A stretch of DNA of 64,000 nucleotides from Candidatus Poribacteria bacterium. Lineage in GTDB: Bacteria; Poribacteria; WGA-4E; PCPOR2b. Below are positions 19,163 through 28,354 of the stretch, one piece after another. The first letter of the stretch is position 1. Each line of letters begins with the position of its first letter. Below the pieces are notes generated by a model. It was not told where the DNA came from, made no database searches, and saw nothing but the letters and a program-made list of their open reading frames with translations. The stretch is taken from positions 5,376,001 to 5,440,000 of the forward strand of contig OZ244042.1 of the NCBI GenBank assembly GCA_965215015.1, read 5' to 3'. The position numbers were made by a program, and so were the translations under genes.

Positions 19163-19327
19163 TCAAACGGGGGTACCCTCAATTGAACGATTAAACACCT
19201 GAGCCTTGGACATAAACGCCTGAAACTTAATGTGCTTTTGGTAAACCCTATAGCCGACATAAGAGACAGAGAGCAATACAATAATACACCCCCCAACAAT
19301 ATAGGGGATGAAACGACGCTTAAACAT
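19163..19327 (-). pseudogene. Truncated N-terminus of a paralog of the protein at 55719-56907
   Basis: MFKRRFIPYIVGG...SYVGYRVYQ vs MSIRHFTPYLVVAG...SYVGYREYQ; strong RBS aggagg; ends at a dispersed repeat. Confidence 0.65.
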
Positions 19328-19404
19328 GGGATTACCTCCTTTTGAGCCAGTCTCCTCCAAGAACAAGGCATAATTGAACCGCGATAAGATTAGTCTTTCA
19401 ACGA

Positions 19405-20253
19405 TTACTCTCCATCCCGTGCACATCGAAAACCGATACGGAATCCTCGGTAGTCCGGTGGATACGAAGCGCGATAGGCACACTGCATCTGAAATCGAAG
19501 CCCGCCCCACGCGCCGCCTCGTAATACCTGAAATTCTCCTGTTTTAGGTCCTATCGGATTCTTCCGAGGGCTGCGCGAATAATAAGCCTTATCATACCGA
19601 TCCGCGACCCATTCGGAGACGTTCCCAGCGCAATCGTGTAACCCGTAGGGACTGACACCAGACGGGAAACTACCGACAGGAAGGGTTCTGTAACTATTAG
19701 CCATGCTATAACCGATACGAGAAAAGTCCATCTCATTGCCCCAAGGGTATTTCCTGCCATCTGTGCCCCGCGCAGCTTTCTCCCATTCCGCTTCCGTAGG
19801 TAGACGTTTCTTTGCCCACCGCGCATAGGCATCCGCCTCATACCAACTCACACCGATTACCGGTTGGTCCGGACCGTTATAACGATTGCGTTCAAACCCA
19901 AGCGGGCGGTCAATGCTTTTGCTTTGAATGAACTCCCATCCTGCTTTGGACCATAAGGCTTCCGTTTGGTATCCACCATCAAGAATGAACTCTTCATATT
20001 GATGGTTTGTTACCTCATACAGATCGATAAAGTACGCTTTCAAATCAATCAAATGGGCGGGAGATCTGTCTGTATTTGTCTCGTGACTTCCCATGAGAAA
20101 TTCTCCGGCGGGAATCAAAGCCATATTTGCGATGGGTTTCGCTCGACTCTCCTCAGGGGTTCGATCTGCGCTGCAACCGAGCGTTCCGATAAAGATAAGG
20201 GATACCGTTATTAAGAAACAATAACGTTTTTCATGTAATTTTCTGTTTATCAC
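19405..20253 (-). CDS. Formylglycine-generating enzyme (SUMF1)-domain lipoprotein
   Basis: 'IPAGEFLMGS', 'RLPTEAEWEKAARG', 'GNVSEW', 'IGFRCA'; lipobox LGC; GTG start after aggagg. Confidence 0.85.
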   Translation of the reverse strand: MINRKLHEKRYCFLITVSLIFIGTLGCSADRTPEESRAKPIANMALIPAGEFLMGSHETNTDRSPAHLIDLKAYFIDLYEVTNHQYEEFILDGGYQTEALWSKAGWEFIQSKSIDRPLGFERNRYNGPDQPVIGVSWYEADAYARWAKKRLPTEAEWEKAARGTDGRKYPWGNEMDFSRIGYSMANSYRTLPVGSFPSGVSPYGLHDCAGNVSEWVADRYDKAYYSRSPRKNPIGPKTGEFQVLRGGAWGGLRFQMQCAYRASYPPDYRGFRIGFRCARDGE

Positions 20254-20321
20254 AGCAGGTGTCCTCCTGAATTTACCATTCACGCTTGCAGGCTTATAGA
20301 GAAAAAAGCAGCAACCTATTA

Positions 20322-21265
20322 TCAAGGAGCTTTCTTGACTACACCATAGATTGGAATTGTAAGCTTGGGCTGATTCTTACTATTGGTCCGAACAGTAAGG
20401 GTATCGGTCAAATCTCCTTCTGGTGCCTCTGAGGCAATGGACAATAGTACTTCATAGCGATTTCCCACTTCCACCGTCTCAAGTTTTGCATCAATATATT
20501 TTGAATCCGTGTAAACGGCTGAGATTTCTAACTGTTCACCGCGAATCCTTGAAAATTGTACACGCTTTTTCGAGACCTGCGACGGTTTCACAAGCCCTAA
20601 AAATATCTGTTTGGGGGAAACTGCTACATCACCTAAAATTTCACCCGAAATCGGGACGGTTGACGCATATGGGCGACCTTCATAGACAAAATCAATCTGT
20701 AATCTTTCAAAAAAAGTGCCGACTGGCATCCCGGCTTCCACCGTTATCATCACCCGGACATTGCCATTGTTTGTCGGTGGCTCTGGCTTGGCAACAATAT
20801 ATGGGGAACTCGGTTTTATATCCACGATTTTCGCTTTGTGTTCTAAGGATTGCCGTAAGAGCAAATGTCTCCCTGCAAACGAATCTGGGGAAATTCTGCC
20901 GAGCAGTAAACTAGCGGGGATTGTCTCAAATGGTGTGATTATGGTCGCTTTTACTGTCAATTCCAAATACGGAATCTGCGGCTGATTGGTTGTGAGCTTC
21001 ACAATTTCATGGACACCTTCGGCCCTTGGTGGTGCCTTAAATGTTACCTTTATCCTGCCAATCCCTCCCGGCGGAATCTGGGTGTCAGATAGAAAGCCGG
21101 TAGTACAGTAGCAGCTACTTTCCACATTGGTAATTTCTAAGACATCTTCCCCACGATTCGTAAAAGTAAAAATATGTTCCACCTCCGTGCCGCCAAACAC
21201 TTGACCGAAATCGTGTATCGGTGCCTTTATTTCAATAGGAAGCTTCCCTTCCGTCGGGTTTGGCG
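20322..21265 (-). CDS. DUF1573-like Ig-fold protein, probably the frameshifted C-terminal part of the C39 protein
   Basis: 'HDFGQV...HIFTFTNRG..VLEITNVESSCYCT...IPPGG.G.I.V'; no convincing separate start. Confidence 0.75.
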
Positions 21266-27078: not shown

Positions 27079-27094
27079 AGCAATTTGTGTGCCC
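27079..27094 (-). promoter_or_regulatory. Sigma54 (-24/-12) promoter
   Basis: GGGCACACAAATTGCT has GG-N10-GC and lies upstream of the cluster. Confidence 0.7.
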
Positions 27095-27253
27095 CCTCTC
27101 TTTTTGAACCCTGTTCCTCCCATCACCATGCCGCAACAAGACACTCAAAATCCTTACGGTGCGCGAAGTCAGGGGACTACCACACCTCCCTTATTTTTTT
27201 CCTTATTTTTTTATTAAAGGGACAAATAAGTACCCCATTCAGGATAGGATTTC

Positions 27254-27321
27254 TGCTACTTTTGGCGTGTGTTTAAGTGGAGCCTATGCCACAAGTGGCA
27301 AAACATCTGCCCCTTGTGGCA
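27254..27321. promoter_or_regulatory. Putative enhancer (bEBP-binding) inverted repeats
   Basis: TGCCACAAGTGGCA (27287), TGCCCCTTGTGGCA (27308), TGCTACTTTTGGCG (27254). Confidence 0.55.
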
Positions 27322-27331
27322 AATCCCTAGT

Positions 27332-28354
27332 TCATAAATTGTACTTGGCTAATTTTCGGTAAAAAGTGCGCTGGGGAATATTCAGCAGACGCGCCGCTTC
27401 CGCCTTATTCCCACCTGTCCACTCCAATGCCTGATAGAGATACTGGCGTTCATAACGCGCCAAGGCCTCTTTCAATGGTAAGAACGGGACTTCACGCATG
27501 TCTGTCTCACTGTCCAGATGGGGGACAGAATCACTACCATTCAACGGAACGGCTTCATCAACTCCCTCTACTGGATCAACCTGAGAAGACCGAAAACGGA
27601 GATGTTGGGGTTGAATCGATCCACCGTCGCTTATTATCAGAGCATGTTCGATGATGTATATCAGTTCACGAACATTACCCGGGAAGATGTATGTCTCCAA
27701 AGCCACTAACGCTTCAGGGCTCAAGGGTGGGGGAGGCACTTTCATTTGAGCTGCAAACTCACTCAAGTAGTGTTGGGCAATGAGTAGAATATCCTCTGTT
27801 CGCTTACGTAGCGGTGGAATCCAAATCGTTATGCCATCTAAGCGACTGTAGAGATTTGCCCGAAACAGTCCTGTCTCAACCTTGGTTGGGATGTCTGCAT
27901 TGGTGGCGGCTATCACCCGGAAATCTACCTTTTTGCTCACGGTTGCACCGATTGGTGTGATAACACCATCATCCAGCACGCGGAGGAGTGTCATCTGATT
28001 TTCGATTGACATATTACCGATTTCATCGAGAAACAGCGTTCCGCGGTTGGCGGTTTCAAAGTAGCCTTGGTTGGCGGTTTCAAAGTAGCCTTTATGAGAC
28101 TTGGTTGCTCCGGTAAACGCTCCCTGGACATGACCGAAGAAAATGGATTCCGACAGTGTAGCGGTAACCGCTCCGCAATTGACTGACACAAGTGGTCGTG
28201 CCGCCCGTGGTCCTCCAAAATGAATGGCTTGGGCGACCAATTCTTTACCGACACCGGTTTCACCAGTAATCAAAACTGGTATCTTGCTATTATTGCTGAG
28301 TTGGTGGATTGTTGTGCGAATGGTTTGCATGGCATCGCTTTCGCCAAGGAGCAT
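27332..28354 (-). CDS. Sigma54-dependent activator (AAA+ plus Fis-type HTH) with no N-terminal sensor domain
   Basis: Walker A 'GETGVGKE', 'GAFTGA', 'LFLDE', 'PGNVREL', C-terminal HTH. Confidence 0.92.
   Translation of the reverse strand: MLLGESDAMQTIRTTIHQLSNNSKIPVLITGETGVGKELVAQAIHFGGPRAARPLVSVNCGAVTATLSESIFFGHVQGAFTGATKSHKGYFETANQGYFETANRGTLFLDEIGNMSIENQMTLLRVLDDGVITPIGATVSKKVDFRVIAATNADIPTKVETGLFRANLYSRLDGITIWIPPLRKRTEDILLIAQHYLSEFAAQMKVPPPPLSPEALVALETYIFPGNVRELIYIIEHALIISDGGSIQPQHLRFRSSQVDPVEGVDEAVPLNGSDSVPHLDSETDMREVPFLPLKEALARYERQYLYQALEWTGGNKAEAARLLNIPQRTFYRKLAKYNL

Follow-up and report, generated by a model that had tools for sequence, protein, structure and literature searches.

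In textbooks, double-glycine leaders and C39 peptidases belong to cytoplasmic export that is coupled to ATP-binding cassette (ABC) transporters. How, then, could such a leader be used when it stands behind a signal of the Sec type, and when the C39 peptidase encoded nearby carries a signal-like N-terminus of its own? This question is raised by a gene cassette of Candidatus Poribacteria bacterium (GenBank assembly GCA_965215015.1, contig OZ244042.1), which is located at 19405-28381 of a stretch of 64,000 nucleotides (positions 5,376,001 to 5,440,000 of the contig; in the following, the window); the genome consists of a single contig of 5.94 Mb. Two precursor genes, each encoding a signal-like start, a double-glycine (GG) leader and a cysteine-rich core, are accompanied by genes for a C39 peptidase with associated DUF1573 domains, a putative thiol-redox fusion protein, a membrane-anchored coiled-coil protein, a lipoprotein and a sigma54 activator. 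Judged from its sequences, the cassette is probably a dedicated extracytoplasmic pathway for disulfide-rich miniproteins, with a conflict molecule as the tentatively favoured kind of product.

Gene content of the cassette

An earlier interpretation of the DNA, made without database searches (the sequence-only reading), had described one co-oriented run of genes. Open reading frame (ORF) listing together with Pfam and NCBIfam profile searches bore this out, since all genes named for this region are present and all lie on the minus strand:

27332-28381, minus strand, sigma54 activator (bacterial enhancer-binding protein), 349 amino acids (aa); PF00158 (193 bits), PF25601 and PF02954
27079-27094, minus strand, sigma54 -24/-12 element GGGCAC-N5-TTGCT, about 124 nt upstream of the start of the redox-fusion ORF
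24845-26971, minus strand, redox fusion, predicted to be exported, 708 aa as listed; likely start at Met33 (26875)
24238-24711, minus strand, precursor 1, 157 aa; residues 1-33 signal-like, 34-53 leader (ending in IAGG), 54-157 core
23703-24176, minus strand, precursor 2, 157 aa counted from the MFKFGF start; the same 12 cysteines in a divergent core
22901-23584, minus strand, single-pass membrane protein, 227 aa; N-terminal transmembrane helix, Pro/acidic linker, C-terminal coiled coil
21232-22812, minus strand, LolA-like domain and C39 cysteine peptidase, 526 aa as it stands; PF03412 (83.5 bits)
21265-21272, G8 homopolymer, read as C8 in the coding direction; site of the frame break that separates the C39 part from the DUF1573 part
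20322-21416, minus strand, DUF1573/Ig-like region; PF07610 (77.8 bits); homology begins near residue 50 of the ORF as listed
19405-20325, minus strand, lipoprotein with the fold of formylglycine-generating enzyme (FGE; sulfatase-modifying-factor-like); PF03781 (218 bits), lipobox-like LGC after a hydrophobic N-terminus

The same reading had stated that enzymes typical of RiPPs (peptides that are made by the ribosome and modified after translation) are missing, and indeed no YcaO, radical-SAM or lanthipeptide enzyme was found among the cassette genes; disulfide formation by the DUF1573 domains or the redox partner is proposed here.

Precursors with a signal-like start and a double-glycine leader

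Signal peptides were judged throughout by features of the n-, h- and c-regions (composition rules). The precursors of the window start with the n-region MFKFGFSQK, which is followed by an uncharged stretch of 17 residues and by CAAAA; the middle segment, between this signal-like start and the 104-residue core, reads VNSPTLTILDMEEMSQIAGG. In precursor 1 the core contains 12 cysteines and is encoded by nucleotides 24241-24552. Residues 1-53 are identical in both precursors. At the DNA level (window 23998-24722) the two genes share an identical run of 169 nt, from -11 to +157, which comprises the ribosome-binding region, the signal and the leader, and identity then falls to about 40%. Such a constant 5' module in front of divergent cores looks like the outcome of gene conversion or of a cassette-like exchange of cores. 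In several runs, the Logan contigs are broken at the repeats.

Altogether 33 precursors from this and other loci were tabulated, and in every one of them the leader is preceded by 25-40 residues in which n-, h- and c-regions can be distinguished. The n-region is always positive or neutral, the uncharged stretch comprises 13-24 residues, and a polar stretch ending with GG, GA or GS follows. Most of the signals contain sites of the AxA type, after which a leader of the normal GG length remains. According to the part of a review of RiPP leader proteases that was accessible, positions -4, -7 and -12 are the determinants of GG leaders, and C39 is described there only as a part of peptidase-containing ABC transporters (PCATs) (PMC10885120). 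The canonical determinants are present in the precursor leaders: besides GG, GA or GS at -2/-1, hydrophobic residues occupy -7 and -12 in all 33 precursors, -4 in 29 and -15 in 23 of them, and they are rare at -5 (4/33), -9 (2/33) and -11 (1/33). One leader matched the GG-leader model TIGR04149 weakly (E 0.039). A GG leader usually forms the N-terminus of its precursor and has no Sec signal in front of it; here, a signal-like segment precedes it in 33 of 33 cases.

A search of 5.8 billion proteins yielded 51 candidate relatives of the precursors, 20 of them with E <= 0.01, and all were without names. No family of Pfam or NCBIfam was matched, and the ESM Atlas contained no usable match. For 18 of the 20 rows (P0018 and P0020, which look truncated or frameshifted, were omitted) the mean pairwise identity was 0.92 in the 20-residue leader, 0.61 in the signal and 0.43 in the core; the leader is thus the most conserved segment. 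All 12 cysteines of the core are invariant in 21 sequences. When the other loci are included, at least three core types which cannot be aligned with each other are found behind one leader type.

Modelled alone with AlphaFold2, the core of precursor 1 gave an all-beta structure with a mean predicted local distance difference test (pLDDT) value of 90.1 and a predicted template modelling score of 0.70, for which no fold match was present in the PDB (best E 0.47). Folds similar to NGF/VEGF or to pilins appeared in Foldseek at low rank and without significance (pilins: E 0.5-3, TM <=0.15) and were dropped. Of the miniproteins of 104 aa with up to six disulfides, which had been foreseen in the sequence-only reading, the core length and the 12 cysteines can be read from the sequence, and the release after GG and the six disulfides are predicted.

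How specific the combination of features is can be estimated from the genome itself. A filter for a hydrophobic start, the leader motif and at least six cysteines was applied to the 33,958 ORFs of 45-260 aa in the entire 5.94 Mb, and five matched; three of these are members of the family and two are unrelated. In another genome (G019) an ORF with a good signal and a GG leader (L015 2535-3058, plus strand) stops after 13 residues of the core, which may be broken or read in another frame.

The putatively exported C39 peptidase

The protein encoded at 21232-22812 possesses a signal-like N-terminus and no other membrane segment. Its C39 domain scored well above the PF03412 cut-off (83.5 bits vs 22; 87 bits in the genome scan) and contains the catalytic residues Cys371, His445 and Asp461. 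The latter two are invariant in 18 aligned relatives, and Cys371 is kept in at least 90% of the rows (L065 has Ser); the same triad pattern is present in ten distant proteins of the short form described below. The best sequence matches in the PDB were the peptidase domains of PCAT1, LahT and ComA (E 5e-15 to 5e-9). NCBIfam models for PCATs cover just the peptidase part of about 120 residues, with 39-53 bits vs cut-offs of more than 500.

The N-terminal region of about 340 aa appears to be LolA-like, at scores below the threshold: PF17131 gave 17 bits (E 0.0047, cut-off 30), the superfamily structure PDB 3buu matched weakly (E 0.43), a precomputed PF17131 annotation exists for the relative P0036, and a protein of 279 aa from another locus (L097) gave 22 bits (E 1.4e-4; cut-off 30). 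At the other end, the first DUF1573 domain contains a CxC motif (SCYCT), which is conserved in relatives including the short-form proteins. The DUF1573 ORF also scored 76.4 bits with the NCBIfam model for OS_HP2 (seleno)protein, below the cut-off of 100, and PF07610 was matched once in the genome, in this window. The assignment "C39 plus DUF1573-like" of the sequence-only reading was correct with respect to the two domains and has to be extended by the LolA-like domain; furthermore, both parts form one ORF of 795-849 aa in the relatives.

In the window the two parts are separated by the G8 run, whose length decides whether one protein or two are made. A contig from run X5 of another study, otherwise identical over 20900-21307, has one letter less at 21265, and there the parts are in frame; run X1, which may be the source sample, has the same length as the window. 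From this difference the split would be either a frameshift that is variable or differs between strains, or an error of the assembly. Several other C39-DUF1573 open frames of Poribacteria contain in-frame TGA, TAG or TAA codons (e.g., G029:C20:81937-83376 and G029:C15:89212-90684); pseudogenes, assembly errors or, for TGA, selenocysteine are the candidate explanations.

Co-folding of leader and peptidase had been named as a check in the sequence-only reading. The C39 domain (residues 352-495) with the leader (residues 31-72) reached a score of 0.53 vs 0.01 for the best control, with a partner pLDDT of at least 53 and at least 70% of the contacts agreeing between runs. In the calibration, 58 of 80 solved complexes and 2 of 110 mismatched pairs attained the mark; with scores <=0.60, only 7 of those 80 complexes attained it, along with both of the mismatches that passed. 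Since complexes of C39 domains with leaders have already been solved, the result may also reflect likeness to these. The model thus lends weak support to a docking of the leader on the C39 domain.

A classical GG system could nevertheless be considered, in which the hydrophobic N-terminus of the precursors would be a long leader or an anchor, the C39 domain would act on the cytoplasmic face, and the transporter would be encoded elsewhere. For this speaks that GG leaders are otherwise known, as far as the accessible part of PMC10885120 goes, only with the cytoplasmic C39 domains of PCATs. However, PF03412 was matched only once in the 5.94-Mb genome, in an open frame of 535 aa without an ABC part; a C39-ABC exporter is not encoded, in line with the sequence-only reading, and with this single C39 domain no PCAT alternative exists for these leaders. 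In addition, a signal-like segment stands at the start of the C39 protein, which is also joined to DUF1573 domains; most precursor signals have an AxA-type site with a GG leader of normal length behind it; and in other loci the role of partner is taken by a multihaem cytochrome of the c type, a protein whose maturation takes place only outside the cytoplasm. A cytoplasmic system is therefore very improbable.

Putative redox partner and FGE-fold lipoprotein

The ORF upstream of the precursors encodes, in this order, a signal-like N-terminus, a degenerate UshA-like domain, a CxxC domain of the glutaredoxin/thioredoxin fold (PF00462 Glutaredoxin, 24.5 bits) and a membrane domain with six helices. 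The UshA-like part has a metallophosphatase fold with an HGCG motif, and the membrane part contains two invariant cysteines (in DGINPCAF and CTGQVYLPT). With the NCBIfam model UshA_like_PCGU the protein scored 102.6 bits, below the cut-off of 275, and in an alignment to 5'-nucleotidases the metal-ligand motifs are replaced (GD by GN, GNHE by GPQD); the domain of the window thus departs from UshA in both profile score and metal ligands. The sequence-only reading had called this protein a CcdA/CxxC fusion. The CxxC domain and the six-helix membrane part were recovered, a DsbD or CcdA profile was not matched, and the UshA-like domain came as an addition. Both cysteine motifs of the one ordinary DsbD_TM encoded elsewhere in the genome (TPC and PCTG) align with NPC and CTGQ of the fusion, at an hhalign probability of only 5.5% (E 0.007). 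In other Poribacteria loci the redox fusion is 72-87% identical, and the same membrane domain was found in L096/L097. The alternative partner in still other loci is an UshA-like domain fused to a multihaem cytochrome c, a partner which must work outside the cytoplasm.

Selenocysteine in place of cysteine marks redox-active sites. In a table of PMC9312934, a source of which a part was accessible, selenoproteins of the DUF1573 family carry UGC and those of the UshA-like family CxU. By this argument, the positions of the DUF1573 CxC motif and of the UshA-like motif would be redox-active; some of the partners of short-form proteins have PCGC.

From the same partners it could also be argued that the cysteine-rich proteins themselves are periplasmic proteins for redox reactions or for the handling of metals or of sulfur/selenium, with the leader as a pro-sequence for controlled activation; the partners would then reflect the working chemistry of the product. 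The universal partner is UshA-like, with a fold that is common also to SoxB (a weak match), and its fusion partner is either a thiol-redox module or multihaem cytochrome c; both DUF1573 and UshA-like families include selenoproteins (PMC9312934, accessible part); and control by sigma54 or by an extracytoplasmic function (ECF) sigma/anti-sigma pair resembles that of stress responses. Against it stand the cores, which are hypervariable outside of the cysteine framework (0.43) and belong to at least three types that cannot be aligned, an unusual situation for a housekeeping carrier; moreover, the beta fold is compact and predicted with confidence, and its 12 invariant cysteines are well suited to structural disulfides. 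Such a function is considered improbable, and the extracytoplasmic maturation of disulfide-rich miniproteins is preferred.

The last gene of the run had been described in the sequence-only reading as an FGE-domain lipoprotein. The fold and the lipobox-like LGC stand, and both catalytic cysteines are absent: in a phmmer alignment a glycine and a gap occupy the positions of the active-site cysteine pair of human FGE, which we take to be the two cysteines in the stretch MCHRSYC.

Membrane coiled-coil protein

For the protein encoded next to the precursors, no family was found in searches of Pfam and NCBIfam. Its architecture of transmembrane helix, acidic linker and coiled coil adjoins a precursor in every locus inspected, with 10-20% identity between subfamilies. 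Between close genomes the coiled-coil protein and the precursors are the fastest to diverge (48-52% identity for the former vs 67-87% for the enzymes), and in L005 and L013 its gene is duplicated along with the precursors. An immunity factor, a scaffold or an adaptor spanning the periplasm are candidate roles. A resemblance to the C-terminal part of an ECF sigma/anti-sigma fusion (L014) was not significant (E 0.059) and was discarded.

The combination of small cores, a C39 peptidase and a coiled-coil protein has a further possible explanation, namely that the same maturation route delivers building blocks of fibres or of a surface layer, as was proposed for FapD (Fap amyloid) and FilB (putative pilus). 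Two NCBIfam models matched the C39 domain below their thresholds, that of FapD with 25.7 bits (cut-off 330) and that of FilB with 18.8 bits (cut-off 475), the core is small and all-beta, surface subunits are often hypervariable, and the Fap system also possesses a coiled-coil periplasmic component (PMC5557850, accessible part). Yet the cores lack amyloid-type repeats, the pilin matches in Foldseek were not significant, and the conserved cassette is without an outer-membrane pore, usher or secretin; a gene with a weak similarity to protein C of type II secretion systems (T2SS; E 0.052) occurs in just 2-3 loci. Fibre or surface-layer subunits are thus an unlikely product.

Predicted regulation by sigma54

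The activator consists of an AAA+ domain for interaction with sigma54, in whose translation GAFTGA can be read, a lid and a Fis-type helix-turn-helix domain. Profile searches revealed no N-terminal sensor or receiver domain. Two matches of PF04552 indicate rpoN in the genome. The -24/-12 element at the presumed target is, taken by itself, within chance, with two one-mismatch matches in the window vs 2.1 expected. The other match is located at 59252-59267 (minus strand): TGGCACCATGGTCGCT. Conservation is more informative: a relaxed motif, TGGCAY-N5-TTGCT, was found upstream of the orthologous redox gene in 12 of 16 loci, and its background of 30 matches in 701,624 nt corresponds to 0.02 expected per upstream stretch of 511 nt. 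Control by sigma54, as postulated in the sequence-only reading, is therefore maintained on the basis of the activator and of this conservation. A general scan of 18700-28700 for sigma70 promoters and terminators gave no more sites than were found in shuffled sequences.

Occurrence in Poribacteria

The C39 protein is common in the phylum, with matches at E <= 1e-5 in 67 of 176 genomes, often in several copies. In two genus-mates which possess the precursor family the entire operon is syntenic. Identities to the window were 81-87% for the redox fusion, 69-70% for the C39 protein, 69-71% for DUF1573, 67-70% for the FGE-fold protein, 48-52% for the coiled-coil protein and 44-62% for the precursors.

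For a wider comparison, 20 further loci were taken around the best LolA-like/C39 matches in other Poribacteria genomes. A gene for the FGE-fold protein was present in all 20, a single C39-DUF1573 ORF in 16, the UshA-like redox gene in 12 and an orthologue of the activator in 9, the latter with 323-364 aa or, with an extra N-terminal part, 510-533 aa. An adjacent ORF for a signal, a GG leader and a cysteine-rich core was identified in 13 loci (12 with 8-10 cysteines and one short ORF of 51 aa). The cassette thus recurs across families of Poribacteria.

Besides this long type, a short form of the C39 protein exists. A profile of the C39 protein gave 51,773 matches at E <= 0.001 and 1,887 at E <= 1e-30 among 1.84 billion representatives; by a count by eye, about 90 of the best 150 had 420-530 aa and consisted of a short hydrophobic start, the C39 domain and three DUF1573 domains. 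Among 18 short-form loci of Poribacteria, 8 contained cysteine-rich ORFs with a signal and GG (or GA/GS), 9 ORFs in total. These loci encode in addition a stand-alone LolA-like protein and the fusion of an UshA-like domain with a multihaem cytochrome c, and their regulators are an ECF sigma/anti-sigma fusion or a sigma54 activator. The ECF regulators (L014 205-1602, plus strand; L090 181-1467, plus strand) consist of the sigma factor, a membrane segment that links it onward, and a long C-terminal region of helices, of which stand-alone homologues (240-269 aa) were noted near other cassettes (L078, L083).

A lack of conserved co-localisation had been named beforehand as one of three results by which the sequence-only reading would be refuted; co-localisation was found in 13 of the 20 long-type loci, in 8 of the 18 short-type loci and in the two metagenome contigs described below. 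Another of the three, a lack of signal peptides, did not appear either, as judged by the composition rules.

Near 2.16 Mb, the genome of the window contains the locus once more in a degraded state (G000:C1:2159152-2161834; L005 9152-11834, minus strand). One of its two precursors is intact; the other lacks the 5' part for signal and leader, and the match to it contains a TGA in frame. There are also two coiled-coil genes in tandem and, from the N-terminus of the C39 protein, a fragment of 82 aa. Peptidase and redox genes were absent from this copy.

In one genome a gene for 189 aa is situated beside two cassettes (L054 12976-13545, minus strand; L083 2430-3005, plus strand). Its N-terminus is similar to a precursor signal, and its C-terminal part is weakly similar to protein C of the T2SS (Pfam E 0.052), which could hint at a secretin-linked route of exit. 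Since it was found in just 2-3 of all loci and at this E value, the gene is not regarded as a part of the cassette.

Other lineages

Ten short-form proteins which were looked up came with the organism names Candidatus Latescibacterota and Armatimonadota, and the product names, where given, were only "DUF1573 domain-containing protein" or "hypothetical protein". Two metagenome contigs with a GC content of 28% contain a comparable cassette: one or two precursors with 13 cysteines, whose leaders end in WAG or YGG, between one and three LolA-like proteins, a C39-DUF1573 protein of 458 aa (23% identical to the Poribacteria protein, E 2e-34), and a protein in which two thioredoxin-like CxxC domains are joined to the membrane domain of the window's fusion. 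In the ESM Atlas the fusion protein had unconfirmed leads only (0.76-0.77), in clusters of C39 and of C39 with DUF1573, where Planctomycetota was the commonest phylum. When genome contigs from outside of Poribacteria were scanned with two peptide patterns, only two proteins were encountered, a PCAT of the ordinary kind in Pedobacter (L076) and, in Cytophagales (L077), a DUF1573 protein that stands alone; neither of them represents this system.

On this distribution a more far-reaching proposal could be built: a hitherto unrecognised periplasmic pathway with RiPP logic in several phyla, in which a Sec signal and a GG leader direct the precursor to a peptidase-oxidoreductase machine with an electron-transfer partner, and in which hypervariable six-disulfide miniproteins of a new fold would be the counterpart of conotoxins and defensins in conflicts between bacteria or between symbiont and host, with the coiled-coil protein as immunity factor. 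In this full extent the proposal is speculative and somewhat doubtful.

Proposed pathway

For Poribacteria, the following sequence of events would answer the initial question. The sigma54 activator would switch on the operon. The precursor would pass the inner membrane by Sec, by means of its N-terminal signal, and signal peptidase would probably cut at the AxA-type site, which would result in a periplasmic pro-protein with a double-glycine leader of about 20 residues. This leader would dock on the exported LolA-like/C39/DUF1573 protein and keep the core near the DUF1573 domains with their CxC motif. The redox partner, either the UshA-like domain with the CxxC and DsbD-like membrane domains or that with multihaem cytochrome c, would help to form or shuffle the disulfides of the core. 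Finally, the C39 domain would cut after GG, and the product set free would be an all-beta protein of about 100 aa, folded and with six disulfides. Whereas gene content, motifs, conservation and co-localisation are direct observations, we infer from them the export, the order of the steps, the thiol-redox activity of DUF1573 and UshA-like domains and the cleavage after GG. The sequence-only reading, with Sec export, folding outside of the cytoplasm and GG cleavage by an exported C39 peptidase, is supported to this extent by the comparisons, including signal-like N-termini in all 33 tabulated precursors and in the C39 proteins.

With respect to the product, hypervariable cores on a fixed cysteine framework, multiple paralogous loci and a fast-evolving adjacent membrane protein suggest a conflict molecule (bacteriocin-like, antagonistic or defensive), with the coiled-coil protein as immunity factor or handler; this assignment is tentative and the least certain element of the proposal.

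Several observations weigh against the proposed pathway or parts of it. The precursor family is rare: at E <= 0.001 it was matched in 5 of the phylum's 176 genomes, among them 2 of 19 genus-mates, and the precursor filters found none in 7 of the 20 long-type loci and in 10 of the 18 short-type loci. The C39 part and the DUF1573 part do not share one frame in the genome of the window. The UshA-like domain of the window reads CGT where the selenoprotein members have CxU, and with CGT instead of CxC a redox role of this domain becomes weaker. For the membrane domain no match to Pfam DsbD/CcdA (PF02683) was obtained at E <= 10, and none in the PDB by sequence or profile. The FGE-fold protein, having no catalytic cysteines, makes no evident contribution to the pathway. 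Finally, the conserved cassette contains no outer-membrane export component such as a pore, usher or secretin; the product may thus never leave the periplasm, which is a poor fit to a secreted toxin.

If the pathway is as proposed, the module for recognition of GG leaders has been moved to the periplasm, and a natural class of substrates would be available for uncharacterised periplasmic C39 peptidases such as FapD. It would also provide the first testable role for the DUF1573 and UshA-like (seleno)protein family and add a confidently predicted disulfide-rich fold without a match in the PDB. The pair of leader and peptidase could serve for the periplasmic production of disulfide-rich miniproteins.

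Comparison with known systems

In the literature, neither GG leaders placed behind a Sec signal nor C39-DUF1573 proteins were found to be described (supplements and subscription journals were not covered), and no paper on the function of DUF1573 was found there. PCATs such as ComA, LahT and PCAT1 share with the cassette a C39 domain with a Cys/His/Asp triad and leaders with GG, GA or GS and hydrophobic residues at -4, -7 and -12. They differ in that here no ABC transporter is present, the peptidase carries a signal-like N-terminus together with LolA-like and DUF1573 domains, the leader follows a Sec-type signal, and the cargo is a protein of about 100 aa with six predicted disulfides instead of a short peptide.

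A precedent is FapD of the Pseudomonas Fap amyloid system. In the accessible part of PMC5557850 it is described as a Sec-exported, catalytically active C39 peptidase of the periplasm whose substrate is unknown. It is alike as a stand-alone C39 protein with a signal for export, and for FapD activity in the periplasm is known (PMC5557850). The Fap proteins, however, are without a canonical GG leader, according to the same part of the paper (PMC5557850), whereas the cassette encodes a canonical leader in the neighbourhood of the peptidase; the low score with the NCBIfam model of FapD (25.7 bits vs 330) and the lack of a FapF-like pore in the cassette are further differences.

Precursors with a Sec signal are also known from bufferins, which source excerpts describe as RiPPs modified by MNIO enzymes (oxidative enzymes dependent on multinuclear non-heme iron), and from PatX of Nostoc, which is exported by Sec and cut in the periplasm by the exported peptidase PatP (PMC12756182, accessible part). 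Ribosomal precursors with Sec signals are common to them and to the cassette, and cleavage by an exported peptidase is shared with PatX. They differ by the MNIO enzymes of the bufferins, by PatP, which is not reported as a C39 peptidase in the accessible part of PMC12756182, and, as far as the excerpts go, by short-peptide products and by the lack of a GG leader, a C39 domain or a dedicated thiol-redox partner.

Possible similarities to DsbD and to CcdA-thioredoxin systems concern the six-helix domain with cysteines in the first (NPC) and fourth (CTG) helix and a fused periplasmic CxxC domain; here, in contrast, a degenerate UshA-like domain is part of the same fusion, and the gene belongs to an operon of precursors and peptidase.

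Disulfide-rich toxins and defensins of animals and plants are made as prepropeptides, with a signal, a conserved pro-region and a hypervariable core on a cysteine framework. The precursors of the cassette have the same three-part layout, with a conserved targeting and pro part and a hypervariable mature part on a fixed cysteine framework. No homology is claimed between them, and the precursors described here are bacterial, would be matured in the periplasm and contain a GG leader of the bacteriocin type.

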